Source: Anaerolineae bacterium (GTDB lineage: Bacteria; Chloroflexota; Anaerolineae; Fen-1058). From it: a stretch of 64,000 nucleotides of DNA. The stretch spans positions 802 to 64,801 of the forward strand of contig DATBWU010000155.1 of NCBI GenBank assembly GCA_036514635.1. The letters are read 5' to 3'. Position 1 is the first letter of the stretch. Each line of letters begins with the position of its first letter. Made by a program: the position numbers and the translations under genes. The notes beneath the pieces are model-generated. The model was not told the DNA's origin and ran no database searches. It was given only the letters and a program-made list of their open reading frames with translations. Below are positions 1,226 through 63,116 of the stretch, in pieces.

Positions 1226-1284
1226 ACAGAGGTTATCAGCGGATGTGAAGCGGACAAACGGATTGAAACGAATACAGATGGGCG

Positions 1285-1374
1285 CCATCCGTTTCCATCC
1301 GCATATCCGTTCACAAGTCCGTTGACAACCCATCCGTTTCCATCCGCTTGTCCGTTCACAAGTCCGTTGATGAC
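1285..1374. repeat. Tandem 45-bp direct repeat x2 built from ATCCGTT/GTCCGTT words
   Basis: ccatccgtttccatccgc(a/t)t(a/g)tccgttcacaagtccgttga(c/t) starts at 1285 and again at 1330. Confidence 0.9.
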
Positions 1375-1395
1375 TCTGACTTCTCGCGGTATAAT
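1367..1395 (+). promoter_or_regulatory. Candidate sigma-70 promoter (TTGATG-17-TATAAT) upstream of ppdK
   Basis: TTGATG 1367-1372, 17-nt spacer, TATAAT 1390-1395. Implies a ~280-nt leader containing the 1517-1641 palindrome. Confidence 0.4.
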
Positions 1396-1516
1396 GCCGC
1401 CCTTGGAAGGGTGACAATCCTCGTCCGACCCGGCGCTAATCGTCACTACCCCTATCGGTTGGGGTGGTTACACTGTAGCCTGGCCCGCCTCTTGCGGGCC
1501 ATACCATGTCAACCCA

Positions 1517-1641
1517 GGATCACTGGTGATTATTCACATCTCACCACGGAGGCACAGAGGCACGGAGCGAAGCCTCTTGAAATCTCCGTGTACTCCGTGT
1601 CTCCGTGGTTATATCGACTTGTGTATAATCACCAGAGGATC
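1517..1641. repeat. Long nested imperfect palindrome (CACGGAG/CACAGAG word family)
   Basis: Outer arms ggatcactggtgattat / ataatcaccagaggatc. Inner arms accacggaggcacagaggcacggag / ctccgtgtactccgtgtctccgtggt. Confidence 0.85.
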
Positions 1642-1682
1642 ACACCTGGCACGCAACTCAAACTCGCAAAGGAGTTTCAGCA

Positions 1683-4469
<2,787 letters not shown>

Positions 4470-4490: not shown

Positions 4491-4528
4491 AAACGGATAA
4501 GCGGATGCGCATCCGCTTATCCGTTTTT
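4491..4528 (+). terminator. Intrinsic terminator after ppdK (perfect 36-nt palindrome plus T tract)
   Basis: aaacggataagcggatgc|gcatccgcttatccgttt followed by tt, 22 nt after the ppdK stop. Confidence 0.75.
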
Positions 4529-4537
4529 CATCCGCTT

Positions 4538-4643
4538 CCCATCCGTTGCCATCCGTTTGTCCGTTTCCCATCCGTTGATGGCCCATCCGTTGCCATCCGT
4601 TTGTCCGTTTCCCATCCGCTGACAACCCATCCGTTGACAACCC
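4538..4643. repeat. Tandem 44-bp repeat x2.4 built from ATCCGTT words
   Basis: cccatccgttgccatccgtttgtccgtttcccatccg... starts at 4538, 4582 and 4626. Confidence 0.9.
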
Positions 4644-4715
4644 CCTCATTCTTGATTCAGGGTATACTTCTATCATAGTGAATTCCGCATTCACCATTCC
4701 GCATTCTTCATTCCC

Positions 4716-8322: not shown

Positions 8323-8357
8323 CTTCATAGCGCGGCCTCCTGCCGCAACCAAATCGC

Positions 8358-8430
8358 GTGGACGCTGATTCACGCGGATGAACGCGGATCGAAACAGAAT
8401 CAGCGTGAATCCGCGTTTATCTGCGTCCAC
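8358..8430. repeat. Imperfect palindrome after rpoD (CACGCGGAT words), probable terminator
   Basis: gtggacgc (8358-8365) pairs with gcgtccac (8423-8430). Inner pair is aacgcggat / atccgcgtt. Confidence 0.55.
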
Positions 8431-8483
8431 GAATCTTCGCGGTCGTGATAGATTCTCAAGGGTAATACTATAGCGCACTATCC

Positions 8484-8678: not shown

Positions 8679-9797
8679 ATGCGCTCCATGAAACGACTGA
8701 TACTCCTCACCACTCTGCTAATCTTCGTCACTGCGTGCAGTGCGCCGACGCCCACGCTGCCTCCAACCGATCTGCCACGCCCAACACAGACACCACAGCC
8801 AATCGACACGCCAACTGTCCAACCAACGAATACCCCCGCTCCAACAACTCCAGCTCCAACTCCAACTCCATCTCCCACGCCCGATGTGTTCGCGCCGTTC
8901 ACCATCGAGCATCTGCGCGAGCGCGTCTACGACACCGGCCCGATCGAGATCGTCGAGACACTGGAATCGAATAGCGCCTTCACGCGATACGCCGTCGCCT
9001 ATCCCAGTGACGGCTTGCGCGTGACGGCGATGATGGACGTGCCCAACGGCCCGGCGGATCAGCGCTATCCGGTGATCATCCTCAATCACGGCTACGTCGA
9101 TCCGGATCAGTTTCCAACCGGCAGTTACATTCGGGCCGAAGCCGACTACCTGGCGAGTCGGGGGTATCTCACGCTCAATCCCGATTACCGCGGTCACGCC
9201 GGATCGGAAGGCGATTCCGAAGACGCCGGCCCGAACGTGCGCGGCGAGAACACCTTCCGCGTGGGTTACGCCATCGACGTGCTGAACCTGCTGCGCGCGG
9301 TGCCATCGCTGGCGCAAGCCGACCCGGAGCGTATTGGCCTGTGGGGCCATTCGATGGGCGGCGGCATCACGCTGAAAGTGCTCACCGTCGATCGCAGCGC
9401 GATGATCAAGGCCGCCGTGCTGTACGGCGCGATGAGCGGCGACGAGACGGCCAACCTGCGCCACATCGATCGCCTGTGGCGACCCGGCCTGTACGATCAG
9501 GTCACGGCGGTCTTCGGCACGCCCGACGATCGGCCGGACAATTACGCGCGCATCTCGCCGATTCACTTCCTGGATGACACCGCCGCGCCGGTCGAAATTC
9601 ATCACGGCTCGCTGGACGATCAGGTCCCGGTCGAGTGGTCGCGTGACCTGAATCAGCGACTCGCGGATGCGGGCAAGACCGTCACCTACTTCGAGTACAA
9701 CGGCTCAGGTCACTCGTTCCACGGCGAGGCGTGGGCCACATTCATGCAGCGCGTCGCCGCTTTCTTCGACCAATACGTGAAGGGCGTCAACGAGTAG
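8679..9797 (+). CDS. Lipoprotein alpha/beta-hydrolase, prolyl-oligopeptidase (S9)-like
   Basis: ATG 8679 lies after the tRNA. Signal plus lipobox ...IFVTAC, Pro/Thr-rich linker, nucleophile elbow GHSMGG, C-terminal D/H region (HHGSLDDQVP, GSGHSF). Confidence 0.8.
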   Translation: MRSMKRLILLTTLLIFVTACSAPTPTLPPTDLPRPTQTPQPIDTPTVQPTNTPAPTTPAPTPTPSPTPDVFAPFTIEHLRERVYDTGPIEIVETLESNSAFTRYAVAYPSDGLRVTAMMDVPNGPADQRYPVIILNHGYVDPDQFPTGSYIRAEADYLASRGYLTLNPDYRGHAGSEGDSEDAGPNVRGENTFRVGYAIDVLNLLRAVPSLAQADPERIGLWGHSMGGGITLKVLTVDRSAMIKAAVLYGAMSGDETANLRHIDRLWRPGLYDQVTAVFGTPDDRPDNYARISPIHFLDDTAAPVEIHHGSLDDQVPVEWSRDLNQRLADAGKTVTYFEYNGSGHSFHGEAWATFMQRVAAFFDQYVKGVNE

Positions 9798-9807
9798 GCG
9801 ACGAATC

Positions 9808-9836
9808 GACCAACCAACTAACGAGCCAACTAACCC
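9808..9836. repeat. CA-rich AACCAACT-type word run
   Basis: gaccaaccaactaacgagccaactaaccc, 12 nt upstream of the MFS start codon. Confidence 0.8.
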
Positions 9837-9847
9837 TCGAACCGCGA

Positions 9848-11203
9848 ATGAACAACGAACCGGCCGTCGCTTCCCTGCCCCTCGACGACATTCCACTCTC
9901 TGAATCGCTGCCCCGAGTGCGCAAAGGCGCTTTCCGCGCGTTGAGCCATCGTAACTACCGGCTGTTCTTCTTCGGCCAGATGATCTCGGTCGTCGGCACG
10001 TGGATGCAGACGACGGCGCTGCAACTGCTCGTCGTCCGGCTGTACCGCGACGATCCGGTGCAGGCGGCCTTCTGGTTGAGCGCCGTCGGCTTCGTTCCCT
10101 TGATCCCGTTGCTCCCGTTCGCGTTGATCGGCGGATCGATTGTGGATCGATTTCCGCGCCGGACGATCGTCGTTGTCACTCAGGCGACGATGATGATCAT
10201 GGCTTTCATCCTGTTCGCGCTCACCTCCGCCAACGTCGTCACGATCGGGCACGTGCTGGGGTTGCTGGTGATTTCCGGCATCGCCAGCGCGATCGACGTT
10301 CCGGCGCGACAAACGCTCGTCATCGAGATGGTCGATAGCGACAAAGACGATCTGGCCGGCGCGATCGCGCTCAACTCGTCGATCTTCAACCTGGGGCGCG
10401 CCATCGGCCCGGCGCTGGCCGGCGTGATCGTCGCCGCCGTCGGCGAGGCCGACGCCTTTCTGCTGAACGGCCTGTCGTTTATCGCCGTGCTGATCGGCCT
10501 GCTGTTGATGCGTCTACCGCCCGGGCCAATCGAGAAGACGCGCTCCAAACTGGGCAAACACTTGCAGGATGGCTTCCGCTACATGCTCGGCGAGAAAACT
10601 CTCCGGGTGTTGTTGTCGATGATCGCGGCGACCGCATTCCTGGCGATGCCGTTCACGCAGTGGCTGCCGCTGTTCGCCCAATACACATTGGCCGATAGCG
10701 CCGCGCCGCTGACAGGCTTCGTGTGCAGCCGCATTCAGTGCCTGACGCCGGAAGCCCTGACGCTGGGCCTGCTCAATGCGTGCTTCGGGTTTGGCGCGTT
10801 GATCGGCGCGCTGCTGGTCGCCTCGCGCAGCGCCGGGCAGGGCCGAGGGCGGATGCTGGCGATTGGCAACATCGGCTTCCCGCTGCTACTGCTGATCTTC
10901 GCAGTGTCACAATCGCTTCTCTGGTCGCTGCTATTGCTGTTCCTGGTCGGCATCGCCTGGGTGATGCAGACCTCGCTCACCAACACGCTGCTGCAATTGA
11001 ACACGCCCGACGACCTGCGGGGGCGTGTGATGAGCATGTATTCGATGTTGTTTCAGGGGATGTGGCGCGTCGGCATCGTGGGGCAAGGCTTGATCGCGGC
11101 GGCGATTAGCGCGCCCTTCGCGATCGGGCTGGGTGCGGTGCTGGCGCTGGGCTACGGCATCTTCGCCGCCGTGCGCTGGCCGAGGGTTCGGAAACTAGCT
11201 TGA
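9848..11203 (+). CDS. MFS transporter
   Basis: ATG 9848 within ORF 9731..11203. About 12 hydrophobic segments; typical MFS loop motif VDRFPRR. Confidence 0.85.
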   Translation: MNNEPAVASLPLDDIPLSESLPRVRKGAFRALSHRNYRLFFFGQMISVVGTWMQTTALQLLVVRLYRDDPVQAAFWLSAVGFVPLIPLLPFALIGGSIVDRFPRRTIVVVTQATMMIMAFILFALTSANVVTIGHVLGLLVISGIASAIDVPARQTLVIEMVDSDKDDLAGAIALNSSIFNLGRAIGPALAGVIVAAVGEADAFLLNGLSFIAVLIGLLLMRLPPGPIEKTRSKLGKHLQDGFRYMLGEKTLRVLLSMIAATAFLAMPFTQWLPLFAQYTLADSAAPLTGFVCSRIQCLTPEALTLGLLNACFGFGALIGALLVASRSAGQGRGRMLAIGNIGFPLLLLIFAVSQSLLWSLLLLFLVGIAWVMQTSLTNTLLQLNTPDDLRGRVMSMYSMLFQGMWRVGIVGQGLIAAAISAPFAIGLGAVLALGYGIFAAVRWPRVRKLA

Positions 11204-11268
11204 ACGACGAAGGACGAACGACCAGGGGCAAAAGTCTTGGTGTTCCGTCATTCGTCATCCGTCCTTCC
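11204..11268. repeat. Imperfect palindrome of ACGAAGGACGAA words between convergent genes
   Basis: acgacgaaggacgaacgacc ... cgtcattcgtcatccgtccttc. Likely a bidirectional terminator. Confidence 0.7.
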
Positions 11269-11289
11269 TCATTCTACATTCTGCATTTC

Positions 11290-11886
11290 TCATTCCGCCT
11301 TTACCCTGTCGCACAGCTCGCGATAACCGTCTTCGCCTAAAATCAGAATCGCTTCCTCGCGATAAACTTCATATAATGGTCGGGCCTGCGCGGCAGGCCG
11401 CTGGCATCCGCCACCCGGAAAATCAAGCGGAGTCTCATCATCCACCGTCATCGCGTCGTGCTCGTGATACAGCGGATAGATCGCGCAGAAATACGGCTTG
11501 AGTCCGGGCCAGCCCAGGCGGTGCGCCTCTGATGCGACTTGTAGCGCGCACTTACGATCGGGGCGCAAGAACACGCAGCACGTCTGGCCGGGCCGCGCCG
11601 GATCGTCGACGGTCGTCGTGCCTTGCTCGTAACCCAGCGGCCAGTTCTCGTCAGGCTCGCCGGGCGAGAACCACTGTGATTCGTCGCGCCGCTCCGGCGG
11701 CAGAACCGGCTTGACGATCTCCGCCGACTCCAGAATGCGCGCAACGTGTTTCGACTCGACCCACACGCCACCGCTGCAGCACGCCGCCTGGCATTCCTTC
11801 AGCGCACAGCGCTCGATCGGCATCGGGCGCAGCACTTTCGGATCGATGCGGATTCCCCCGATGATCAGCGATTCGTCAGTCTCCAT
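11290..11886 (-). CDS. Cys-rich metal/Fe-S-binding protein (DUF3109 / YkgJ-like CxxCxxCC family)
   Basis: 198 aa. Motifs C..KECQAACCSGG, TCCVFL, KCALQ. Family name recalled from memory and not verified. Confidence 0.55.
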   Translation of the reverse strand: METDESLIIGGIRIDPKVLRPMPIERCALKECQAACCSGGVWVESKHVARILESAEIVKPVLPPERRDESQWFSPGEPDENWPLGYEQGTTTVDDPARPGQTCCVFLRPDRKCALQVASEAHRLGWPGLKPYFCAIYPLYHEHDAMTVDDETPLDFPGGGCQRPAAQARPLYEVYREEAILILGEDGYRELCDRVKAE

Positions 11887-12704: not shown

Positions 12705-12715
12705 GAGCGGTATAG

Positions 12716-12766
12716 CCACAGAGCCACAGAGACACGGAGAAAACTCTGTGTTCTTTGTGTCTCTGT
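12716..12766. repeat. Hairpin of CACAGAG/CACGGAG words between pstA and pstB
   Basis: ccacagagccacagagacacggag aaaa ctctgtgttctttgtgtctctgt. Confidence 0.8.
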
Positions 12767-12774
12767 AGCAAGCC

Positions 12775-13625: not shown

Positions 13626-13652
13626 AACCATGGATGGCACGGATGGCACGGA
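13626..13652. repeat. Single arm of CACGGATG words flanking the GxxExxY gene
   Basis: aaccatggatggcacggatggcacggat. Same orientation as the left arm of the 14057-14122 element. Confidence 0.7.
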
Positions 13653-13661
13653 TATTGTTAT

Positions 13662-14039
13662 TTACAACACACGCCGTTTGAACTCCAGATGGCCTGTGCC
13701 AAAGTTGAGCACAAGCCCAACACGAAGTCCAGTGACCTTCAGGTAATTGATAATCTGCGCCTCTTCAATCTCAGTCAGGCATTTGATCGCTTTCGTATCC
13801 ACAATCACCTTACTGTCGACGACAAAGTCCGGGCGATACACTCCGGCTGATATGGTCTTGTAGGGCACAGAGAAAGTCTTTTGACGCTCAAAGGGTATAG
13901 CACGCAATCCAAACTCGTGGGCAAGGGCTTCCTCATACACTGCTTCTAGAAAACCAGGCCCGAGAATGGTATGTACCTCCATCGCCGCACCGATGATCTT
14001 GCCTGTCAAGTCCGCATATAGCAGTTTCTGTTCGGTCAT
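13662..14039 (-). CDS. GxxExxY-family protein (PD-(D/E)XK nuclease superfamily), inserted between pstC and pstA
   Basis: 125 aa. Motif ...LGPGFLEAVYEEAL... (GxxExxY), then DFVVD...VDTKA...E core. Visibly lower GC than its neighbours. Confidence 0.85.
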   Translation of the reverse strand: MTEQKLLYADLTGKIIGAAMEVHTILGPGFLEAVYEEALAHEFGLRAIPFERQKTFSVPYKTISAGVYRPDFVVDSKVIVDTKAIKCLTEIEEAQIINYLKVTGLRVGLVLNFGTGHLEFKRRVL

Positions 14040-14056
14040 CGTTACAGCTCCTGATT

Positions 14057-14122
14057 AACCACGGATGACACGGATGACACTGATAGCTCACACAATCCGT
14101 GTAATCTGTGTCATCCGTGGTT
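14057..14122. repeat. Palindromic element with AACCACGG...CCGTGGTT termini (CACGGATG words)
   Basis: aaccacggatgacacggatgacac...gtgtaatctgtgtcatccgtggtt. Overlaps the pstC stop codon. Confidence 0.85.
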
Positions 14123-15023
14123 AAGACAATAACCTTGCCGAGCGGCGCGTCTGCTGGAAGATCGCCACGGACGCGACGAGGTTGACGACGAACGTAATGA
14201 CGAACAAGACAATGCCGATGGCGAACAGCACGTGAAAGTGCGTGCTGCCCTGAGCCACTTCGCCCATCTCGGCGGCGATCGTCGCCGTCATCGTGCGCAC
14301 GGACAGGAAGAATGCGTCGAGCGAGAGCGGCATGCGCGCCGCGTTGCCGGTGACCATCATCACGGCCATCGTCTCGCCGATGGCCCGGCCAATGCCCAGC
14401 ATCATCGCCGTCAGGATGCCCGACCGCGCCGCCTTGACTGTGACCATCCAGATCGTCTGCCACTTGGTCGCGCCCAACGCCAGCGCCGCGTCGCGATAAC
14501 TCTTCGGCACCGCGTCCAGCGCATCTTCCGCCACGCTGATAATCGTCGGCAGTGCCATGTAGGCCAGCACGAGCGATCCGGTGAACGCCGTCAGGCCGGT
14601 CGGCGCGCCGAACGTCTCGCGCACCAGCGGCGACAACACTAACATGCCGATGAAGCCCAAGACGACCGATGGGATTCCGGCCAGCACTTCGATCGCCGGC
14701 TTCAGCACCTCACGCAGCCAGCGCGGCGCAACCTCGGCGATGAAAACCGCCGTCAGCAAGCCGGCCGGCAGCGCAATGACCGCCGCACCGAGCGTGACGA
14801 CGAGGGAGCCGAGAATCAGCGGGAGCAGCCCGAAATGCTGCTCGATGGGATACCAGCGCGTTGCGGCGAGATCGGCCAGCGGCACTTCGACAAACGCCGG
14901 CACACCCTCGCGCAGCAGAAACGCGAAGATGAGCACGACAAAACCGATCGCCATCCAGCCGCTGGCACGGATGATGCGCTCGGCGAGAAACTCGGTAAAT
15001 GACCTGCGCTTCGTGATGACCAT
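14121..15023 (-). CDS. pstC: Phosphate ABC transporter permease PstC
   Basis: 300 aa, multi-TM. ...AEDALDAVPKSYRDAALALGATKWQTIW... EAA-type loop. Confidence 0.9.
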   Translation of the reverse strand: MVITKRRSFTEFLAERIIRASGWMAIGFVVLIFAFLLREGVPAFVEVPLADLAATRWYPIEQHFGLLPLILGSLVVTLGAAVIALPAGLLTAVFIAEVAPRWLREVLKPAIEVLAGIPSVVLGFIGMLVLSPLVRETFGAPTGLTAFTGSLVLAYMALPTIISVAEDALDAVPKSYRDAALALGATKWQTIWMVTVKAARSGILTAMMLGIGRAIGETMAVMMVTGNAARMPLSLDAFFLSVRTMTATIAAEMGEVAQGSTHFHVLFAIGIVLFVITFVVNLVASVAIFQQTRRSARLLS

Positions 15024-16726: not shown

Positions 16727-16790
16727 GAGGCGTCGATTCGCAAAATACGATATAATCTGAGTGCCGCCGACCCTTATGGGCAGCGAGCTA

Positions 16791-16836
<46 letters not shown>

Positions 16837-16908
16837 AGCCCACTCGTTTTGCCGCTTGGATCGCACGCCGACCGAGACGGAGACCATGCAGAATTACACC
16901 GCTCGCCT

Positions 16909-16942: not shown

Positions 16943-17014
16943 CGTTTCTACATTCGACATTCTGCATTCTACATTCGTCCGACCTGCTATCAGCCAGACT
17001 GAAGGAGAGTCAAA

Positions 17015-17890: not shown

Positions 17891-18108
17891 AGGCTCTCCG
17901 AAAGCTCACCACCACGCCCCCGCCCAGCGCGCCCCCGCTGCTTCGCAGCGGACAGGGCGTGTCCGACGCTTCGCGTCGGGGGCGCGCCAGGCGAGACTCC
18001 ACCCCCTGAAGGGGGCAAGCGACACAAAGGAACACAAAGAAAACTTGGAGAGGCTTGGTGCCCCGGTGTCTTGGTGGTTACCACAGCGACCTTTTCGGAC
18101 AGGCTTTT
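17889..18108. repeat. MITE/REP-like element, family A copy 1
   Basis: Near-identical to 61090-61300. Outer arms agaggctctccgaaagc / gcttttcggacaggcttt-like, inner termini caccaccacg...cttggtggtt. Three mini stem-loops at 17935-17951, 17963-17979 and 18002-18015. Confidence 0.85.
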
Positions 18109-19113: not shown

Positions 19114-19138
19114 GCCCGTGCCGGCCCTCAAAGACTAT

Positions 19139-19196
19139 CCACGAATCGGCACGAATATGCGCGAATCTATTCGTGTCGATTCGTGAAGATTCGTGG
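19139..19196. repeat. Hairpin of CACGAAT words
   Basis: ccacgaatcggcacgaatatgcgcgaat ct attcgtgtcgattcgtgaagattcgtgg. Confidence 0.8.
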
Positions 19197-19228
19197 ATCA
19201 CTTCTCAGCGTGACCAGGAGACAACACA

Positions 19229-20995: not shown

Positions 20996-20996
20996 G

Positions 20997-21113: not shown

Positions 21114-21132
21114 GCATCACTTGGAGTCAAAC

Positions 21133-22023: not shown

Positions 22024-22032
22024 CCAACCATC
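21985..22032. repeat. Period-8 word run grading from GAGTCAGC to CAACCAAC
   Basis: gagtcagc gagtcagc gaatcagc gaaccagc caactaac caaccatc. Contains the panC stop codon. Confidence 0.85.
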
Positions 22033-22054
22033 GCCCTATCTCACTATCGCACGT

Positions 22055-48060: not shown

Positions 48061-48151
48061 CCAATGACGAACGACGGATGACGGACGCCACCTTGCATCG
48101 TGCATCTTGCATCCTGTATCAACCTTCACTCATCACAACAGATCGCCACTC

Positions 48152-50859: not shown

Positions 50860-51028
50860 CTGGGAAAAGCTTCACCGCGAAGACGCGAAGAGCGCAAAGC
50901 CTTTGAAATTCTTGGCGTCCGCCTGCCCCGCTTTTTTGCGGGGTTGCGTTCGCCTGCCCTCTTCAGAGGGTTGCGGTTCAATTCCCGCCCAAGCCGGAAG
51001 AGCCTAAAAAGCCAACGCTCAATAGGTG

Positions 51029-51205
51029 TTTCAAGGAGGTCGATGCAACGAATCCACAACGGATAAACGGATGCGGCTTGCGCCATCTCATGCCTGTCGC
51101 GGATTCGTTTACGGGAGCACTGCACCGCATGTGTCCGTTGCCCATCCGTTGCCTCGGCCACATTCACCGCAATTGGCTTTGGGGCAAACGGCCACCTCCT
51201 TGAAA
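51029..51205. repeat. Large palindromic element (arms tttcaaggaggt / acctccttgaaa) enclosing ATCCGTT words and the family C repeat
   Basis: 12-nt arms at 51029-51040 and 51194-51205. caacggataaacggat / gtccgttgcccatccgttg inside. Confidence 0.75.
51100..51135. repeat. Short dispersed repeat, family C copy 2 (inverted)
   Basis: cggattcgtttacgggagcactgcaccgcatgtgtc, the reverse complement of 34606-34637. Confidence 0.8.
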
Positions 51206-52473: not shown

Positions 52474-53537
52474 ATGATAATGCCCTGCCCGATGGCGACC
52501 TCGCCATCGAACAGCACCAGCGCCTGGCCCGGCGTCACGTCGCGCTGCGGCTCGTCGAACTCGACGCGGATCGAGTCGCCCTGCGGGTAGGCCATCGCCG
52601 GCACCGCGCGCGCCGTGTAGCGAATCTTCGCTTCCGCGCGGAACGACCCGCTCGGCGCGACCCCGCTGACGTAGTGCATATCGCGCGCCACGCATTCGCG
52701 CCGGCCCAGTTCGGCGAGCGAGCCGACGATGAGCGCGTTGTCGGCGGCGTCCTTCGCAATGACGTACAACGGCTCGGCGGCGGCGAGGCCCAAGCCCTTG
52801 CGCTGGCCGACGGTGAAGAACGGCAAGCCGGTGTGTTGGCCCAAGACGTGTCCGGAAGTGTCGCGAATAACGCCCGGCCGAATCGCGTCCGGTGCGTGGC
52901 GTATCAGGAAGGCGCGATAATCGCCGTCGCCCAGGAAACACAAATCCTGGCTTTCCATCTTTTCGGCGACCGGCAGCTTCATCCGTGCTGCGTGCGCGCG
53001 CACCTCAGGCTTCGTCAGTTCGCCCAGCGGAAACATCACGTGCGCTAACTGCGCCTGGCCCAGCACGCTCAAGACGTAGGATTGATCCTTATTTCGATCG
53101 ACGGCGCGCAGCAAGTGGTACGTGCCATCGACCTGCCGCACACGCGCGTAATGTCCCGTCGCCAGAGCCTGCGCGCCCAGTCCCAGCGCTTTGTTCAGCA
53201 GCATCTCAAAGCGAATGTGCCGGTTGCACTCCAGGCACGGGTTGGGCGTGACACCCGCCGCGTACTCGCGAACGAAAAAATCGACGACAATGGACTTGAA
53301 CGAGTCGGCGATGTTGATCAGGTAAAAGGGGATGCCGAGTTGATCCGCGATGGATCGCGCAATGGCGACGTCGGCCGGCGTGCAGCAGCGGTTGGTGCGC
53401 GAGCCGCCTTCCTCGCTCCACAACTTGAGCATGATGCCGGCCACGTCGTAGCCCTGCTCGACCAGCAAGGCCGCCGCGACCGAACTATCGACGCCGCCGC
53501 TCATCGCGACGACGACGCGGGCGCTGTTGCGATCCAT
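52470..53537 (-). CDS. mnmA: tRNA 2-thiouridine(34) synthase
   Basis: 355 aa. PP-loop VVAMSGGVDSSVAA, catalytic Cys regions (NPCLECN, DLCFL). Confidence 0.95.
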   Translation of the reverse strand: MDRNSARVVVAMSGGVDSSVAAALLVEQGYDVAGIMLKLWSEEGGSRTNRCCTPADVAIARSIADQLGIPFYLINIADSFKSIVVDFFVREYAAGVTPNPCLECNRHIRFEMLLNKALGLGAQALATGHYARVRQVDGTYHLLRAVDRNKDQSYVLSVLGQAQLAHVMFPLGELTKPEVRAHAARMKLPVAEKMESQDLCFLGDGDYRAFLIRHAPDAIRPGVIRDTSGHVLGQHTGLPFFTVGQRKGLGLAAAEPLYVIAKDAADNALIVGSLAELGRRECVARDMHYVSGVAPSGSFRAEAKIRYTARAVPAMAYPQGDSIRVEFDEPQRDVTPGQALVLFDGEVAIGQGIII

Positions 53538-54085
53538 TACTTGAACACGTCCTTTACGGCAACTGCAAAGCCCGGCAACACGTCTTCACCGTCCAGCGTA
53601 TCATCTTCAATAAGTCGCCGCACTTCACGTGAGGGCCGATAAACATGCACGCTGCGCGTTTTCGGATTGAGAACCCAGACTAATCGGACGCCGATGCCGA
53701 GATATTCCGCCACCTTCTCTTCAATTTCGCTCCATCGATCGGTGGGTGAGACCACTTCGACCACCAGATCGGGAGCGACATCCACAAATTTCGAGAGATC
53801 GGTGACTTGCGCCAGGCGCTCATTCGAGATGTACATGGCATCGACCGCGCGAATGGTATCCGGGTCGCGCGAAGTGAAGAGGCCGGTTTCGGCCCCAAAG
53901 ACCAAACCGAGTTTCTTGGGTTCTACGAAGTTCAGCAGCTGCGAACCGATCTTAATGGTGAGTTTGCCGTGCTCGCCACCTGAAGGAGTCATCTTGATCA
54001 GCTCTCCTTTCACCAGTTCCGCACGGCCCGCATCGCTCATGTTCAGCAAGTCATCGGCCGTGAGCAACGTTCGAACAGCCATCAT
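53537..54085 (-). CDS. Uma2 (DUF820) family endonuclease, PD-(D/E)XK fold
   Basis: 182 aa from ATG 54085. ...ELI.G.L.KMTPSGGEHG..., PDLVVEVVSPTD, EKV.EY...GV..VWVLNP. Lower GC; its stop overlaps the mnmA ATG by 1 nt. Confidence 0.85.
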   Translation of the reverse strand: MMAVRTLLTADDLLNMSDAGRAELVKGELIKMTPSGGEHGKLTIKIGSQLLNFVEPKKLGLVFGAETGLFTSRDPDTIRAVDAMYISNERLAQVTDLSKFVDVAPDLVVEVVSPTDRWSEIEEKVAEYLGIGVRLVWVLNPKTRSVHVYRPSREVRRLIEDDTLDGEDVLPGFAVAVKDVFK

Positions 54086-54096
54086 GCACCTCGCTT

Positions 54097-55281
54097 TCAG
54101 TTCATTGCGGACATCGGCGCGTGCTCCCTCAGTCGCGCGACGACGCGCGGCAGAACGTCCAGCACTATGTCGATGTCCTCCGGCTGCGTCAGATGCCCCA
54201 GCGTCAGGCGCAGCGATCCGACGGCCCACTCGCGCGGCAGGCCCATCGCCGTCAGCACGAACGACGGCTCGGCTTCGCCCGTGGTGCAGGCCGATCCGGT
54301 CGAGACGCAAATGCCCTCCAGGTCGAGCGCCAGCAGGGCAGATTCACCTTCGACGCCCTTCAGCGCAAACGATGCGCTATTGGGTAGTCGCCCGGTCGGA
54401 TGGCCGGTGAGCTTCACGTCGGGCACGCGCTCTAGCACGCCCTTGACTAATCGATCGCGCAACGCGGGCAATCGCGCCGACTCGCTCGCGCGGTTTTCCG
54501 TTGCCAGCTTCAACGCCGCCGCCGCGCCGACCACGCCCGCCACGTTGACCGTGCCCGGCCGGCGACCGCGCTCGTGCCCGCCACCGGTCAGCGCCGGGAC
54601 GAGTTCCGCCCCGCGTCGGACGTACAGAATGCCGACGCCTTTCGGGCCGTAGAATTTGTGCGCCGACAACGCGAGCAGATCGACGTTCAGATCATCGACC
54701 TTGAGGCTGAGCGCCCCGGCGGCTTGAACCGCATCGGTGTGAAAGACGATGCCCTTGCGCCTGGCGATTGCGCCGATCTCGCCAATCGGTTGAATCGTAC
54801 CAACCTCATTGTTGGCGTACATCACGCTGATCAGGCCGGTATCGCGCCGGATCGCGCGGCCTATCGCATCGGGATCGACGCGGCCATAGTCGTCCACGTC
54901 GACGACGGTCAGTTCGAACCCGTGCAGGTCGTGCAACTGGTCAAGCGTATGCCCGACGGCGTGGTGCTCGATTGGCGTCGTGATGATGTGACTCCCCCGC
55001 CCAGTCTGGCGTGCCGCCCACGCCGCGCCGCGCAACGCCAGGTTATCGCTTTCTGTGCCGCATCCGGTAAAGACGACCTCCATCGGGTTGCAGCCCAGCA
55101 CATCGGCGACAGTCGAGCGGGCTTGTTCCAGGGCTTTCAACGCCGCCCGGCCCGCGCCGTGAATCGACGACGTATTGCCGAACGCGCCGGCCCAATACGG
55201 CTGCATCGCTTCGACCACGCGCGGATCGACCGGCGTGGTCGCCGCGTGATCGAGATAGATCGTGCGCTGTGCTTCACTCAT
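54097..55281 (-). CDS. Cysteine desulfurase (NifS/IscS class)
   Basis: ATG 55281 with SD GGGGGAG. IYLDHAATTP, SAHKFYGPKG (PLP Lys), STGSACT (catalytic Cys). Confidence 0.93.
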   Translation of the reverse strand: MSEAQRTIYLDHAATTPVDPRVVEAMQPYWAGAFGNTSSIHGAGRAALKALEQARSTVADVLGCNPMEVVFTGCGTESDNLALRGAAWAARQTGRGSHIITTPIEHHAVGHTLDQLHDLHGFELTVVDVDDYGRVDPDAIGRAIRRDTGLISVMYANNEVGTIQPIGEIGAIARRKGIVFHTDAVQAAGALSLKVDDLNVDLLALSAHKFYGPKGVGILYVRRGAELVPALTGGGHERGRRPGTVNVAGVVGAAAALKLATENRASESARLPALRDRLVKGVLERVPDVKLTGHPTGRLPNSASFALKGVEGESALLALDLEGICVSTGSACTTGEAEPSFVLTAMGLPREWAVGSLRLTLGHLTQPEDIDIVLDVLPRVVARLREHAPMSAMN

Positions 55282-55362: not shown

Positions 55363-55842
55363 ATGCAGACCATCTACGTTTTGATCGGCGCGCCGGCTTG
55401 TGGCAAGACGCAATGGGCGTTACGCAACGCGAAGCGACTGGGCGCGTTCATCCTATCGGCGGATGTCGTGCGCGAGGCCATTCGCCAATCCGGCGGCGAT
55501 CCGTTCGACGGCGATCGCGTCTTCGCCGAACTCGGCCAGCGGCTCAGCGAGCGCCTGTTGTCGGGCGACTCGGTGATTGTTGACGCCACGCACTGGCAGC
55601 GCCAATACCGATCGTACGCCGTGAGCGCGGCCCGCGCGGTGGGCGCGCGCATCGTCGGCGTGTGGTTCGATGTTCCGCTGGAGGTGTGCCTGCAACGCAA
55701 CGATAGCCGCCTCGGCAGCAGTCCCGGTCTGCGCCGCGAAGACCCCGAGACGATCCGACGTATCCATGTCGGGCTTGAACTGCCTTCAATCGAAGAATTT
55801 GACGAAATCCATCGCATCCAGTATGCAACCGAATCCTGGTGA
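55363..55842 (+). CDS. P-loop kinase-like protein (AAA_33 type), paralog 1
   Basis: 159 aa. Walker A GAPACGKT, VIVDATH, WFDVPLEVCLQRN. About half identical by eye to 57228..57707. Confidence 0.75.
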   Translation: MQTIYVLIGAPACGKTQWALRNAKRLGAFILSADVVREAIRQSGGDPFDGDRVFAELGQRLSERLLSGDSVIVDATHWQRQYRSYAVSAARAVGARIVGVWFDVPLEVCLQRNDSRLGSSPGLRREDPETIRRIHVGLELPSIEEFDEIHRIQYATESW

Positions 55843-55969
55843 TTACGCACACGTCAGCGAACCACGGAGGCAGTGCGAAGCCTCCCCGTGGGACGGAGAC
55901 ACAGAGGTTTCAAAGGGCCGCTTTCTCCGTGCCTCTATGTCTCTGTGGTGAGAGGTGAACAATCACCAG
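55836..55969. repeat. Nested palindromic element (CACGGAG/CACAGAG words; outer arms ctggtgatta / caatcaccag)
   Basis: aaccacggaggcag...ggacggagacacagagg ... cctctatgtctctgtggtg. Same architecture as 1517-1641. Confidence 0.8.
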
Positions 55970-57745: not shown

Positions 57746-57816
57746 TCACCGCCGAGAACGCCGAGAGCGCAGAGAGAGATGAAATGTCTCGGCGGTCTCC
57801 GCGTACTCTGCGGTCA
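57746..57816. repeat. Hairpin of CGCCGAG/CGCAGAG words in the eno leader
   Basis: tcaccgccgagaacgccgagagcgcagagag ... tctcggcggtctccgcgtactctgcggtca. Confidence 0.8.
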
Positions 57817-59119: not shown

Positions 59120-59173
59120 GCAACGGATAAGAACGGGTAAACGGATGCTCGACGGTATCCGTTTATCCGTTGC
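59120..59173 (+). terminator. Stem-loop of AACGGAT words after eno (probable terminator)
   Basis: gcaacggataa...aaacggat gctcgacggt atccgtttatccgttgc. Confidence 0.55.
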
Positions 59174-59201: not shown

Positions 59202-59783
59202 ATGAACCCGATCTTGCTCGATTTCCCCGACTCTTTCGACACCGAGCGGCTGACCATCCGCGCGCACCGCGTCGGTGATGGCGCGCAAATCGCTGAAGCC
59301 GTGCGCGAGTCGCTGGACGCGCTGCGGCCATGGATGCCGTGGGCGCAAGATGAACCGAGCGCCGAGGCTCAAGAGGCCCGTATTCGACATTGCATCGCCG
59401 GCTGGATCGGGCGTAAAGACCTGGGGCTTTTGCTGTTTCTCAAAGGCCGCGACACACTCGTCGGCAGCAGCGGCCTGCATCGCATCGATTGGGATGCGCG
59501 GTGTTTTGAAATCGGCTACTGGGTGCGGACGAAGTTCGCCGGGCAGGGCTACGCCACCGAAGCGGTCAACGGTATCACCCGATTCGCATTCACGCATCTC
59601 AAGGCCAATCGCGTCGAGATTCGCTGCGACGCGAAGAACGTCCGCAGTGCGGCGATCGCCAAACGCTGCGGATTTCTGCTGGAGGGCGTGCGGCGGCACG
59701 ATAGTCTCGGTGTCGATGGCGACCTGCGCGACACGCTGGTCTTCTCCAAGATCGGCCTGGATGAGTTCCACTGGTACGACTGA
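59202..59783 (+). CDS. GNAT N-acetyltransferase (RimJ/RimL-like)
   Basis: ATG 59202. ...ERLTIR..., FEIGYWV, GQGYATEA motif A. Confidence 0.85.
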   Translation: MNPILLDFPDSFDTERLTIRAHRVGDGAQIAEAVRESLDALRPWMPWAQDEPSAEAQEARIRHCIAGWIGRKDLGLLLFLKGRDTLVGSSGLHRIDWDARCFEIGYWVRTKFAGQGYATEAVNGITRFAFTHLKANRVEIRCDAKNVRSAAIAKRCGFLLEGVRRHDSLGVDGDLRDTLVFSKIGLDEFHWYD

Positions 59784-59864
59784 CGACGAAAGACGAACGA
59801 CGGAGGGCGAAAACGATCTCTTCGCACACGATTCACCTTCGTCATTCGTCTATGGTCCTTCGTC
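59782..59864. repeat. Imperfect palindrome of ACGAA(A/G)GACGAA words
   Basis: gacgacgaaagacgaacgacggagg ... ccttcgtcattcgtctatggtccttcgtc. Confidence 0.8.
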
Positions 59865-59873: not shown

Positions 59874-60512
59874 ATGAATGTCGAACCCGTCACTCTTGAA
59901 GGCAAGGTCATCCGGCTTGAGCCGCTCTCGCTGGATCATCACGCGCAACTGTGCCAGGTGGGCCTGGAGCCGGGCATCTGGCGCTGGACGACGACGGCGG
60001 TTAGCACGCCGGACGACATGCGCGCTTACATCGAGAATGCGCTGAAGGCGCAGGCAGAAGGGTCGGCCCTGCCCTTCGCGACGATCGAGAAGTCCGCTGG
60101 CCGCGTCGTGGGCAGCACGCGCTTCGGCAACATCGACCGGGCCAACCGCCGCGTCGAGATTGGCTGGACGTGGATCGGGCTGCTGTGGCAACGCACGCCG
60201 GTCAACACCGAGGCGAAGTACCTGATGTTGCGGCACGCCTTCGAGACGTGGGGCTGCATCCGCGTGGAACTGAAGACCGACGTGCTCAACGAGCGCTCGC
60301 GCAACGCCATCCTGCGTATCGGCGCGAAGCAGGAAGGCATCCTGCGCCAGCACATGATCGTGCCAGGCGGGCGACTCCGCGACTCGGTGTACTTCAGCAT
60401 CATCGACCGCGAGTGGCCGGAAGTGAAAGCGCGGCTGGAAGAGAAACTGGCGCGCCCATTCCTTATCAGAGCACAACAAACCACGGAGACACGAAGACAC
60501 GGAGAGACGTAG
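59874..60512 (+). CDS. GNAT N-acetyltransferase (RimJ/RimL-like)
   Basis: 212 aa. VIRLEPLSLDH, VEIGWTW, NERSRNAILRIGAKQEG. The last ~11 codons are encoded by a repeat arm. Confidence 0.85.
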   Translation: MNVEPVTLEGKVIRLEPLSLDHHAQLCQVGLEPGIWRWTTTAVSTPDDMRAYIENALKAQAEGSALPFATIEKSAGRVVGSTRFGNIDRANRRVEIGWTWIGLLWQRTPVNTEAKYLMLRHAFETWGCIRVELKTDVLNERSRNAILRIGAKQEGILRQHMIVPGGRLRDSVYFSIIDREWPEVKARLEEKLARPFLIRAQQTTETRRHGET

Positions 60513-60543
60513 CCCATCTCAGTGCCTCCGTGTCTCCGTGGTT
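60479..60543. repeat. Palindromic element with AACCACGG...CCGTGGTT termini
   Basis: aaccacggagacacgaagacacggagag ... cctccgtgtctccgtggtt. Spans the GNAT stop and ends 3 nt before the NUDIX ATG. Confidence 0.85.
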
Positions 60544-60545
60544 CC

Positions 60546-61091: not shown

Positions 61092-61300
61092 GAGCCTGTT
61101 TGAAAAGCCCTGATGATTAACCGCCACGCCCCCGCCCAGCGCGCCCCCGCTGCTGCGCAGCGGACAGGGCGTATCCGACGCATCGCGTCGGGGGCGCGCT
61201 AGGCGAGTCACCACCCCCTGAAGGGGGCAAGCGACACCAAGAATCGCAAAGCTTCCTTTGAGCCTTGGTGTCTTGGTGGTGAGTTTCAAGACAGCCTGAG
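61090..61300. repeat. MITE/REP-like element, family A copy 2
   Basis: Near-identical ~110-nt core to 17911-18020. Outer arms gagagcctgtttgaaaagcc / gtttcaagacagcctgag. Confidence 0.85.
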
Positions 61301-61311
61301 GGATTCCGATC

Positions 61312-62223
61312 TTGAAGAAGCCCAGTCGACTGGAACGCCGGATCGCCGCTGCGCTGAAGAACGAAGACCTGGACGCGCTTGTGCTCGCGCTCGGCGCACG
61401 CGGCACTGGGCACGCCGCCGTCAGTGCTGATCCGGGCACGGCGCGCACCGCCGACAAGCGCTTGGCCGCCAGGATGATTCGCGCACACTTTGCCGATCGG
61501 CCGCGCGATCTCTCGGCGTGGTGCAAGCAGCTGCTGGCACGCCCCGACCACAACACGCACGAAGTCGGATTGATCCTGCTGCCCGACGTGTACACGCTGC
61601 ATCCGATCTACGCCCAACGCCAACTGCTGAAGTTTGCCGACAGCCCCAACTGGGAAGTGCGCGAATTTGCGGGAAGCGTCGCCGGGCAGATCCTCGACGA
61701 GCACTTCAACATGTTCTACCCGGTGATGAAGAAGTGGTCGCGCCATGCTTCGGAGAATGTGCGGCGCGCCGTAGTGATTGCGACCATGCAGGCCTCGGAC
61801 GCGAAAAAGCCGGAGCGCGGGCCAAAGTTGATGCGCCTGCTCGATCCGCTGATGGCCGATCCGGCGCGCTACGTGCGCGTCAACCTGGGCCAGTTCGCCA
61901 TCAGCCTGTCGCTGTTGAAGAACTACCCTGAATTGACGCTCAAGTGGCTAAACGCGCAGTCGCGCAAGGCCGACGAAAACGTGCGCTGGAACGTGGCGAT
62001 GGTGTGGAGCGCGGTCGGCGGGCGGAAACATGCGGTGGAGGGCGCGCGCCTTCTGCATCGGCTGGCCGCCGATGATCGGCGCTTCGTGTGGCGCGCGGTC
62101 GCCAGCGCGGCGGTGAAGCTGGGTCGTGCCCGGCCTGATGTGGTCAAGCCGCTCGTCCGCAAATGGCGAACCGATCCCAGGCGCAAGCACGCGGCGGCAG
62201 TCGTCGCCTATTACCTGAAGTGA
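61312..62223 (+). CDS. HEAT-repeat protein, DNA alkylation repair (AlkD/AlkC-like) family
   Basis: 303 aa, TTG start. Repeated W.VRE/NVRR/YVRV/NVRW helical-repeat signatures. Family call from memory. Confidence 0.55.
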   Translation: MKKPSRLERRIAAALKNEDLDALVLALGARGTGHAAVSADPGTARTADKRLAARMIRAHFADRPRDLSAWCKQLLARPDHNTHEVGLILLPDVYTLHPIYAQRQLLKFADSPNWEVREFAGSVAGQILDEHFNMFYPVMKKWSRHASENVRRAVVIATMQASDAKKPERGPKLMRLLDPLMADPARYVRVNLGQFAISLSLLKNYPELTLKWLNAQSRKADENVRWNVAMVWSAVGGRKHAVEGARLLHRLAADDRRFVWRAVASAAVKLGRARPDVVKPLVRKWRTDPRRKHAAAVVAYYLK

Positions 62224-62227
62224 CAAA

Positions 62228-63031
62228 GTGACAAAGCCCATGCCCGAATGTGAACCGACCCTCACCAGCCTGGCCTTCGATCGCGCCGCGTCGTTCTACG
62301 ACGACACGCGCGCCCTGCCCGCCGACATCTCCGGGCGCGTCACACAAGCGATCCTCGACCTGGCCCCACCCGGTCAGCCGATACTCGAATGTGGGGTGGG
62401 CACCGGGCGCATCGCCGCGCCCGTGTTGATGCGAGGCGCGCCGCTGATCGGCATCGATCTGTCGATCGAGATGATGCAGCGCCTGCGGGCAAAGGTCGAT
62501 CACGCGCGGCTGGCGCAGGCCGATATTTCACGTCTACCCTTTCCCGATGCCACCTTCGGCGCGATCCTCACGGTGCACGTCCTTCATCTGGTCGGCCCGT
62601 GGCGCGAGGCGCTGCGCGAGTTCAAGCGCGTGCTGCGCCCCGGCGGCGCTTACCTCAACTCACACAACTTCCGCCGCCCCGACTCGCCCAACGCCCGGCT
62701 GCGCGAGCGCTGGCACAACCTGGTCGAAGCACGCGGCTATTCCTGGCGTCGCCCCGGCGCGCAGAACCACGAGCAAGTCGTCGACGAGCTGCGCTCGATG
62801 GGTGCGCGCGTCGAAGAGGTCTTCGTTGGATCGTGGACGCAAACGGTCACGCCGCAACAAGAGCTCGAATCGATTGCGAGCCGTGTGCACTCGGACACGT
62901 GGGACGTGCCGGATGACGTCCTGGCGGGAACCGCCGCCGAGCTGCGCGCCTGGGCCATCACCGAGTATCGCGATTTAAGCACCCCCGTTCCAATCGAGCG
63001 GCGCTTCAGCTTCGACGTAACCCGCTTTTGA
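62228..63031 (+). CDS. Class I SAM-dependent methyltransferase
   Basis: Motif I ILECGVGTGR, then LRPGGAYL. Start is GTG 62228 or ATG 62240. Confidence 0.8.
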   Translation: MTKPMPECEPTLTSLAFDRAASFYDDTRALPADISGRVTQAILDLAPPGQPILECGVGTGRIAAPVLMRGAPLIGIDLSIEMMQRLRAKVDHARLAQADISRLPFPDATFGAILTVHVLHLVGPWREALREFKRVLRPGGAYLNSHNFRRPDSPNARLRERWHNLVEARGYSWRRPGAQNHEQVVDELRSMGARVEEVFVGSWTQTVTPQQELESIASRVHSDTWDVPDDVLAGTAAELRAWAITEYRDLSTPVPIERRFSFDVTRF

Positions 63032-63047
63032 GATTTGTCGACCGCTT

Positions 63048-63116
63048 AACCGCCGAGGCCACGGAGAACGCGGAGGAATCCTGAGAATCTCTGCGCCCTC
63101 AGCCTCCTCGGCGGTG
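63048..63116. repeat. Hairpin of CGCCGAG/CACGGAG/CGCGGAG words
   Basis: aaccgccgaggccacggagaacgcggag ... ctctgcgccctcagcctcctcggcggtg. Confidence 0.8.

Follow-up and report, generated by a model that had tools for sequence, protein, structure and literature searches.

The closest described counterparts of the elements reported here are repetitive extragenic palindromes (REPs), bacterial interspersed mosaic elements (BIMEs) and the REPtrons that pair such palindromes with a RAYT gene (PMC3733652, PMC2817692). Our subject is a set of hairpins built of tandem short words, together with a gene for a GxxExxY protein, in a 64,000-nucleotide stretch of an Anaerolineae bacterium (contig DATBWU010000155.1, positions 802 to 64,801; hereafter the window). 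As in REP systems, the palindromes are abundant, extragenic and placed just past or overlapping stop codons; they form several families per genome; their units can cluster (here in L170, an Anaerolineales locus); a small nuclease-type gene is flanked by the same palindrome arms; each protein lineage is paired with its own repeat family; and some copies may have roles as 3' stem-loops. The protein, however, is of the PD-(D/E)XK class and not the HUH Y1 transposase of REPtrons, and the arms are internally tandem-repetitive, with the cassette gene inside the palindrome. Heads read T-N-A-ACC-R-C in place of the REP tag GTAG (or CGTC), CGTC occurring only in the GACGAAG family, where it is part of every word, and stems are 16-47 bp long (in elements of 36-131 nt), as against REP palindromes of 20-40 nt. 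The initial annotation of this DNA had set its spacer palindromes apart from classical REPs, a distinction that the missing GTAG tag and the much longer stems uphold. In logic, REP plus RAYT would nevertheless be the closest analogue, with tag, enzyme class and arm structure as the points of difference (PMC3733652).

Miniature inverted-repeat transposable elements (MITEs) and their parent insertion sequences offer a second comparison, in that short non-coding elements with two inverted ends exist beside a longer, gene-bearing form with the same ends. GxxExxY cassettes likewise share their ends with gene-less hairpins: in L010, a Chloroflexia metagenome-assembled genome (MAG), arms enclose the gene at one place and a 90-nt loop at another, and an element of the window with CTGGTGATTA outer arms has terminal inverted repeats and 7-bp flanking duplications. 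This composite element is the only one to combine terminal inverted repeats, a target-site duplication and non-coding content; the AACC-headed hairpins, in contrast, have neither target-site duplication nor recognised transposase, and we know of no described bacterial MITE family whose ends are arrays of 7-10-nt words. The intervening sequences of 23S rRNA, in which a small open reading frame (ORF) occupies the loop of a long RNase III-cleaved stem, are similar in that a small, possibly selfish ORF lies within a long inverted repeat inside a host transcript, but here the host is an mRNA operon and the ORF family is another one.

In architecture, the closest analogue appears to be the P6b stem of the Nostoc tRNA-Leu intron, made of TDNGATT or NNTGAGT heptamers, in which complementary heptamer arrays face each other and units come and go on either side (PMC4476775). 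Also close are the heptamer repeats of cyanobacteria, or short tandemly repeated repetitive (STRR) sequences, of which the TAACTGA repeats also occur in Beggiatoaceae (PMC4679880). Like these, the arrays of the window are intergenic tandem repeats of about 7 nt that form many families per genome and have a scattered phylogenetic distribution hinting at horizontal transfer; unlike them, they belong to another phylum, use other words, and are dominated by a palindromic form that recurs at many loci. No gene has been reported as associated with the heptamer repeats of cyanobacteria and Beggiatoa or with the P6b stem (PMC4476775, PMC4679880).

Word arms that bracket GxxExxY genes in eight phyla suggest a repeat-plus-nuclease system that we have not found described. 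The explanation that we favor, with moderate confidence, is that the hairpins of the window form a lineage-amplified, REP- or MITE-like palindrome family whose gene-bearing form is the GxxExxY cassette, some copies having been co-opted as 3' stem-loops. Each element arm would be a short tandem array of a purine-rich word (N-R-C-R-R-A-K plus a linker of 0-3 nt), often AACC-headed, with its complement as the other arm; the gene-bearing form would be a promoterless cassette, co-oriented with its host operon, with a GxxExxY PD-(D/E)XK gene of about 125 aa in the loop between the arms; and the gene-less hairpins would be either the non-coding form of such cassettes or their landing sites. The mechanism of spread, as we infer it, is that the nuclease acts on word arms, either folded or in duplex, by recognising or cutting them, and thereby spreads or maintains them, perhaps in trans, as RAYT does on REPs, or perhaps by homing into empty hairpins with the arms as homology. 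Slippage would afterwards lengthen each arm independently, and copies would persist just past stop codons, where a transcript stem-loop may be harmless or useful, the copy behind the pyruvate phosphate dikinase (PPDK) gene, at least, acting as a terminator-like 3' hairpin.

A broader and more tentative proposal is that GxxExxY nucleases and tandem-word inverted repeats make up an unrecognised, cross-phylum class of selfish cassettes, a PD-(D/E)XK counterpart of REP-RAYT that acts on hairpins of its cognate word and whose gene-less derivatives seed the intergenic stem-loops of some genomes, possibly including the heptamer repeats known from cyanobacteria and from other filamentous bacteria. Bacteria and archaea encode thousands of GxxExxY (PDDEXK_3) proteins, and a reproducible link to a particular DNA or RNA structure would give the family a testable substrate and supply, beside RAYT and REP, a second, independent nuclease gene paired with a genome-wide palindromic repeat. 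It would also account for the origin of much of the spacer DNA in this Chloroflexota lineage, in which long stems could be built quickly through word-array slippage. Carriers in culture, Gemmatirosa kalamazoonensis and Bacteroides finegoldii, make the idea testable at the bench.

Arms and gene travel together across phyla, with lineage-specific words. The single GxxExxY gene of the window (13662-14039, minus strand, 125 aa), also the only small extra gene in its ABC-permease operon, belongs to a minus-strand cassette at 13626-14124 and, from the arrangement of its arms, lies in the loop of a CACGGAT-word palindrome. In gene sense, the cassette consists of a purine-rich arm (R-arm) AACCACGGATGACACAGATTACACGGAT (14095-14122), a short internal pyrimidine-rich arm (Y-arm; 14057-14080), the ORF, and a Y-arm TCCGTGCCATCCGTGCCATCCATGGTT (13626-13652). 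This last array had been listed as a spacer palindrome, but its partner is absent from its own spacer, and it is the far arm of the cassette. The upstream end of the cassette is a CACGGAT hairpin with a TTAACC...GGTTAA head (14055-14124; fold z-score of -9.3, here and below against 200 dinucleotide shuffles), whose pattern AACCACGGATNACACGGAT has three matches against 0.02 expected and within whose head falls the stop codon of the upstream permease. The inverted-repeat score of the window cassette, 15.5, is reached by 0.07% of random positions, and each of the nine distinct loci tested has a best score of 13 or more across the gene, a value that only 0.6% of 1500 random positions reach.

Every GxxExxY gene that we fetched lies inside or beside word arrays (16 independent contexts in 8 phyla); a clear inverted pair surrounds the gene in about 10 of the 16, and in nearly all of them the gene is co-oriented with its neighbours, from which very short spacers separate it. 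Within the window-like lineage of proteins (62-88% identity), AACCACGGAT...ATCCGTGGTT arms are present in four syntenic Anaerolineae relatives (L164, L166, L167 and L168), L167 holding a second, non-orthologous cassette copy with the same arms; L170 has the same arms, and six gene-less hairpins cluster around its gene, three complete in tandem on each side; and L171, from the Sedimentisphaerales (Planctomycetota), has window-type AACCACGGAT...ATCCGTGGTT arms around its gene. L010, the other locus with a high word density, encodes a GxxExxY protein 47% identical to that of the window between near-perfect 42-nt inverted CGCAAAGA arrays, and its 90-nt loop elsewhere is enclosed by CGCAGAGA-word arms of the same type, which form a graded series with the gene-bearing form. 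CGCMAAG arms are found in four of four contexts (5 genomes) of the L010 lineage, reading CGCCAAGA or CGCAAAGA in L173, L181, L197 and L194, the last with a clear downstream arm only.

Plasmid-borne homologues of 30-47% identity likewise have word arms or adjoining word arrays. In Bacteroides finegoldii, TTCACCACAGAGGACGCAGAGGACACGGAG and its complement surround the gene and match, head included, the CACGGAG/CACAGAG family of the window hairpin at 1541-1611; Bernardetia has CACAGAGA arms of the CACAGAG/CACGGAG type, Treponema a single inverted ACACGGATTCG (CACGGAT) word, and Gemmatirosa a ACGCGGAT (CGCGGAT) word hairpin that adjoins the gene and is of the same type as the one at 8357-8431. Word arrays stand on one or both sides of the gene in Sphingomonas, Fusobacteriota, Prevotella and Persicobacter, and the head and word of the array at 50866-50900 match the array upstream of the Sphingomonas gene. 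Protein lineages thus pair with different words (CACGGAT, CGCMAAG and CACAGAG).

The protein itself matches PF13366 (E 1.7e-38) and TIGR04256 (E 7.5e-41, 139 bits against a cut-off of 35), and the scanned ORFs of the window yielded no Y1_Tnp domain. Across 41 aligned homologues, the GxxExxY motif varies little or not at all; in the motif D-x9-(D/E)-x-K, D71 and K83 hardly vary, and position 81 is acidic (E or D). The AlphaFold model (mean predicted local distance difference test score 94) has an alpha/beta nuclease fold whose Foldseek neighbours are generic PD-(D/E)XK proteins only, at template-modelling (TM) scores of 0.57 or less (lambda exonuclease, Cas4, restriction enzymes, splicing endonuclease, resolvases); the sole sequence match in the PDB, to T7 endonuclease I over the catalytic motif, is non-significant (E 0.54) and serves as a lead only. 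Judged by its motifs and modelled fold, the protein is probably an active nuclease. The one survey listing PDDEXK_3 describes it as a family of unknown function that has undergone multiple transfers (PMC3424549). Our literature searches on GxxExxY, PDDEXK_3, PF13366 and TIGR04256 returned no paper tying the family to repeats, and a phage collection held no GxxExxY homologue.

Arrays and hairpins were located with Tandem Repeats Finder (TRF) and an inverted-repeat scan, with spacers taken from a curated gene map. It had been proposed that nearly every spacer is a palindrome of words specific to that spacer, each a run of one word followed by its inverse. The listed words are indeed present at their positions, as paired inverse arrays of period 7-10 in TRF, and the scan recovered their arms. 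Yet word hairpins, with arms of 2-7 tandem copies of a 7-10-nt word and its complement, occupy 19 of the 46 spacers of at least 25 nt (41%), and hairpins or arrays together occupy 24, and the words belong to a few related families that recur across other spacers and other genomes. The layout of word run and inverse describes many spacers well (outer head, word arm, loop, inverse arm) but not the one-armed arrays: the CATTCNN arrays at 4682-4714, 11268-11298, 16947-16980 and 24709-24743 have no inverse partner, nor do 48058-48086 and most of 50866-50900, and the TTTACGC arrays at 27324-27356 and 27471-27508 are direct, not inverted, repeats of each other. Both the AACC...GGTT termini and the CTGGTGATTA outer arms (9 matches against 1.1 expected) were recovered as described, and to the earlier list we add the hairpin at 8357-8431 and the one-armed array at 21979-22052.

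The structures survive comparison with shuffled controls, 15 of 23 candidate hairpins having z-scores between -5 and -9.3; folds are weak at 1236-1300, 51045-51153 and 11202-11274 (z -1.2 to -2.0). Tandem arrays with periods of 6-12 make up 12.8% of the intergenic sequence and 0.7% of the coding sequence, an 18-fold difference, and the intergenic TRF rows have periods of 7 (11 rows), 8 (6), 9 (8), 10 (5), 14 (10) and 21 (3). As background we used 1.3 Mb of assembled genomes, for the most part Chloroflexota MAGs, in the surroundings of their PPDK genes, and metagenome contigs totalling 0.68 Mb, the latter reached through enolase and, with the closest only 72% identical and too distant for spacer comparison, serving as background only. 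Strict word-palindromes (ungapped arms of at least 14 nt with an arm periodicity of at least 0.70) number 1.9 per 10 kb in the window, 0.13 in the assembly loci and 0.12 in the metagenome loci.

Both arms of most hairpins follow one grammar, which from the outside inwards is a head T-N-A-ACC-R-C and then units of N-R-C-R-R-A-K with a 0-3-nt linker; it embraces the words CACGGAG, CACAGAG, CACGGAT, CACGAAT, CGCAAAG, CGCAGAG, CGCCGAG, GACGAAG and AACGGAT. Runs of at least three grammar words have a density of 2.0 per 10 kb in the window, as against 0.055 per 10 kb across the other loci (2.0 Mb), an enrichment in the window that the proposal of word-built spacers had called for; because such runs recur in other loci, the words are a shared vocabulary and not spacer-specific. 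In several stems (e.g., 19137-19198), the word cores are paired and the linkers unpaired, which yields stacked 7-bp helices with small internal loops. The conserved core and free linkers, along with periods near one helical turn in some arrays (10 at 19137 and 40484), could also be accounted for if a host protein (a regulator or nucleoid protein, say) bound the arrays as double-stranded DNA and read their converging direct repeats, so that any capacity to fold into hairpins was incidental. We regard this as highly improbable: a period of 10 is no more frequent than one of 7, 8 or 9, so great a variety of words would call for many proteins, the arrays lie at the 3' ends of genes and not at promoters, and no candidate binding protein was identified.

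Several other classes of element were considered and set aside. CsrA-type GGA sites were dropped since many words have no GGA and the words are paired; integron attC sites and gene cassettes (RYYYAAC...GTTRRRY cores) since the heads fit poorly, the ORF is inside the palindrome, housekeeping genes surround it and no integrase is encoded in the window; and CRISPR arrays since there are no spacers and the arrays are inverted. Iterons were likewise dropped.

The purine-rich arm is 5' and the pyrimidine-rich arm 3' in all 19 hairpins, and since a palindrome reads the same on both strands, this polarity belongs to the element and not to the gene strand. The higher-order units of the two arms differ, as in the hairpin at 39948-40078, where the 5' arm repeats a unit of 21 nt and the 3' arm one of 14 nt; slippage therefore lengthened each arm on its own, with no copying of one arm from the other. 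For the gene-less copies, fold-back copying as the origin of the palindrome was rejected on the grounds of these different higher-order units and of non-complementary linkers; the arms of gene-bearing cassettes are near-perfect mirror copies.

Hairpins begin between 34 nt before and 63 nt after the upstream stop codon, within 25 nt of it in 12 of 16 cases, and five overlap it. They are found in four of five convergent, 15 of 37 co-directional and none of four divergent spacers. This is the position of REPs, extragenic palindromes downstream of genes that often overlap stops, though at 36-131 nt the elements are longer than is typical. For annotation, it matters that hairpins of this kind overlap stop codons, encode protein C-termini and supply -35 boxes.

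A possible explanation for such placement is that the hairpins are RNA elements built in place: post-stop stem-loops, lengthened by slippage under selection for a stable 3' or intercistronic stem (as a terminator, attenuator or exonuclease barrier), the flanks of GxxExxY genes being alike since inserted genes need insulating stems. Besides the stop codons and the avoidance of divergent spacers, the independent expansion of the two arms would fit, as would the polarity, which is as expected of a bidirectional terminator, and the finding that canonical terminators, by a hairpin-plus-T-run consensus, are not enriched in the first 20 kb (12 against 15.9 expected). The strongest single case is the PPDK hairpin, a perfect 18-bp palindrome of the AACGGATA word (4491-4526, plus strand, z -7.3) that begins 21 nt past the stop codon and is followed by a T run, and which, by these features, looks like an intrinsic terminator; L001, a soil Anaerolineae MAG and the closest relative, has a hairpin of the same word in the same place with a compensatory G-C to A-T change. 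Only this hairpin, and in part the outer arms at 27358-27470, have the makings of an intrinsic terminator. A T run is lacking from most hairpins, and in many the next start codon follows 5-30 nt downstream, which means that most cannot be full terminators. Nor did the sense strand show more G-U than A-C mismatches, a surplus that would have indicated an RNA-only function; the result was mixed. Because hairpins are also missing from the orthologous spacers of close relatives, and because identical heads and words around the GxxExxY genes of eight phyla are left unexplained, we consider construction in place unlikely. No hairpin matched an Rfam covariance model at the gathering score, which only three tRNAs of the window passed; the matches to microRNA precursor models fell below threshold and reflect nothing more than the length of the stems.

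Close relatives have gained or lost gene-less copies. In the orthologous spacers of L164, L166, L167 and L168, the hairpins of the window are mostly absent or replaced by another family, and the strict word-palindrome count is zero in L164, L166 and L167. The permease-ATPase spacer, which in the window holds a CACAGAG hairpin (12714-12769, z -7.3), has none in L164 and L166 and a CACGGAT-family hairpin in L167; the panE-proS spacer, with a period-10 CACGAAT hairpin of three 7-bp helices and unpaired linkers (19137-19198, z -6.9), has none in L166. Between proS and panC, where the window has a 126-nt CAGTAAT/CACTGAT heptamer palindrome that overlaps the proS stop (20991-21116, z -6.9, TRF), L166 has a 681-nt spacer (2082-2762) with a 133-aa ORF of no Pfam match, flanked by TACGTRT and CACGCAT word arrays. 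Likewise, the 113-nt composite element at 1523-1635 is absent from the otherwise conserved PPDK leader of L001. From these absences and replacements it follows that gene-less hairpins are young and lineage-specific, and their youth fits spread better than it fits an ancient regulatory structure.

Arrays also change by whole units between strains. Soil metagenomes hold contigs 99.5-99.9% identical to the window, and the differences are concentrated in arrays: at 1285-1370, one unit of 45 nt has been gained or lost and there is an indel of 10 nt, and at 4619-4625 a unit has been converted. Extra units of the array at 21979-22016 appear in soil metagenome contigs, although such DNA contigs are fragmentary and provide copy-number hints only. 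Variation of this kind, the clustering of periods at 7-10 with higher-order units, and the many one-armed arrays (CATTC, TTTACGC, AACC, GCGAGTCA) raise the question of whether the arrays, like the cyanobacterial STRR, are a neutral by-product of unusually frequent short tandem duplications in non-coding DNA, with palindromes arising by chance pairing and with neither a nuclease nor an RNA function. We think this quite improbable, in that such a process would not account for the single polarity of 19 of 19 hairpins, conserved heads, fold z-scores down to -9, precise placement at stop codons, or an association with GxxExxY genes far beyond chance.

Several observations weigh against the origin of the hairpins from GxxExxY cassettes. 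That the arms of gene-less hairpins are not mirror copies means that much of their growth is plain slippage. Among about 20 AACC-headed elements and cassettes, there is no consistent flanking direct repeat, only an A/T-rich T-N-A by the head, and no precise empty site was found for such hairpins in L164, L166 and L168, whose orthologous spacers are too diverged to align. The window has one GxxExxY gene per 64 kb and about 19 hairpins, and the permease-operon cassette is orthologous in five genomes and hence did not move there recently. A link to the gene exists for the CACGGAT, CGCMAAG, CACAGAG/CACGGAG and CGCGGAT families only; none was seen for the GACGAAG, AACGGATA, CAGTAAT, CATTC and TTTACGC families or the A/C-rich arrays, which may represent other cassette lineages or a general tendency to tandem duplication. 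Three plasmid examples have one-sided or directly oriented arrays, and the sample of GxxExxY loci is small and non-random. We know of no activity for any GxxExxY protein, and none of the RNA runs searched held the source organism.

The remaining hairpins and arrays are distributed over a region of 62% G+C whose proteins place it in the class Anaerolineae of the Chloroflexota and whose genes are ordinary housekeeping ones (proline racemase, PPDK, dnaG, rpoD, an ABC transporter, a pantothenate/CoA cluster, enolase and others). The PPDK gene (1683-4469), 87% identical to that of L001 and 68-69% to that of Thermoflexus, has elements on both sides. Upstream is an asymmetric element (1236-1374, TRF) in which a few GCGGAT/ACGGAT words precede about ten CATCCGTT words arranged as a 45-nt super-unit, and which ends within the -35 box of the PPDK promoter, a promoter-like site at 1367-1395. 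In L001, the proline racemase-PPDK spacer has at this place about 1 kb (8713-9800) with three small ORFs that, by eye, resemble a toxin-antitoxin insert. The leader at 1382-1499, 3' of TTGATG-17-TATAAT (1367-1395), is 73% conserved with L001 9819-9937, whereas the flanking spacer is not; it has no Rfam match and, judging from its conservation, could be a structured 5' untranslated region. The MITE-like composite element at 1523-1635 lies in this 5' leader, with terminal inverted repeat CTGGTGATTA, 7-bp direct repeats AGGATCA and an inner CACGGAG/CACAGAG hairpin (1541-1611, z -6.2). A second CTGGTGATTA copy, at 55836-55969, has CCGAATC direct repeats and hairpins at 55861-55952 (inner hairpin z -2.6). 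Directly after the palindrome behind PPDK is a one-armed CATCCGTT array (4527-4643).

Many of the other hairpins are downstream of genes. A ACGCGGAT-word hairpin (8357-8431, z -8.2) begins 34 nt past the rpoD stop, and another, of the AACGGATA word (59120-59173, z -6.4), 5 nt past that of enolase, whose start is preceded at 14 nt by a CGCCGAG/CGCAGAG hairpin (57746-57816, z -5.1). The GACGAAG family is represented by a hairpin in a convergent spacer that overlaps the stop of a major facilitator superfamily gene (11202-11274; z -2.0 on the plus strand, -32.7 kcal/mol on the minus strand), by a 131-nt heptamer palindrome that overlaps the stop of a LysM gene (39948-40078, z -7.8, TRF), and by a hairpin that overlaps the stop of a GNAT gene (59782-59864, z -2.8). 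The 5' arm and loop of an AACC-headed CACGGAG hairpin (60479-60543, z -6.8) hold the last 11 codons and the stop of a GNAT ORF, and a convergent spacer holds a TTAACC-headed CGCCGAG/CACGGAG hairpin (63046-63118, z -4.3). A period-10 CACGGAT hairpin (40484-40553, z -7.0) is just upstream of a LysM-M23 gene. In the region 27324-27508, the CGCAAAGA-word hairpin at 27378-27450 (z -5.3) has outer arms CTGAAAAAAGGC and GGCTTTTTGCAG and is set between the two direct TTTACGC arrays; its CGCMAAG word pattern has 12 matches against 1.8 expected, and this word also builds the arms of the cassettes of the L010 lineage.

Some arrays have mostly or only one arm, such as the R-array CTTCACCGCGAAGACGCGAAGAGCGCAAAG just past the YjeF stop (50866-50900, plus strand) and an 8-nt-period array between panC and coaX (21979-22052, plus strand) that drifts from GCGAGTCA to AACCAACC, forms no hairpin (z -0.8), and whose word also builds arrays elsewhere in L001. 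Three in-frame 9-nt words (CGCAGAGAA, CGCAAAGAA and CGCGGAGAA) lie within the 3' end of panE (19053-19077), which shows that word arrays with a period divisible by three can extend into coding sequence.

A CGCAGAG hairpin (z -2.3) is contained in the first copy of a 105-nt dispersed repeat (30902-31006), which is 94% identical to the second copy (34773-34877). Between the copies, 3.8 kb apart, is a segment of lower G+C (31850-34700; 0.565) with an unknown ORF, a B12-binding radical-SAM gene and tRNA-Lys(CTT), which may be an acquired island or a product of rearrangement between the repeats.

Two further genes of the window are of small PD-(D/E)XK type. A DUF559 (Vsr-like) gene at 26055-26513 has on its flanks three hairpins of another family, CCCCTYCTCCTGA...TCAGGAGARGGGG (25995-26029, 26497-26536 and 26563-26604), and related CCCCTCTCCC...GGGAGAGGGG palindromes are present in the panB-panE spacer of L166. 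The other, a Uma2/DUF820 gene (53537-54310), stands with overlapping ends between mnmA and an iscS-like gene and has no flanking arrays. Long word palindromes of still other families, (GGGACTC)n, (CACGCAGC)n and (GAATTTC)n, occur in L193 (Gemmatirosa kalamazoonensis plasmid 1, 417261-457599) and at 3836-5821 of L181.

Two kinds of array precede start codons. Pyrimidine-rich CATTCNN/CATCCTT heptamer arrays (4682-4714, 16947-16980 and 24709-24743 in the window, 14370-14405 in L001 and 183-238 in L166) are outside any palindrome and end 1-35 nt before the starts of dnaG, panB and coaBC, with no Shine-Dalgarno motif apparent by eye. Since L001 retains the dnaG array and L166 the coaBC array, these leaders look conserved in place. 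G-poor, A/C-rich arrays (AACC, CAACTAAC; one family in 24 register copies) take up five short spacers immediately upstream of start codons (9793-9850, 16774-16847, 21991-22056, 22821-22886 and 23716-23813) and may be unstructured translation leaders; similar are CAACTC x5 at 8845-8875 and the ACTCTA repeats before PPDK in L001. Finally, a 143-nt G+C-rich dispersed repeat, unrelated to the word hairpins, has two copies of 89% identity with long internal palindromes (CGCCCAGCGCGCCCCCGCTGC...), at 17908-18050 and 61120-61262.

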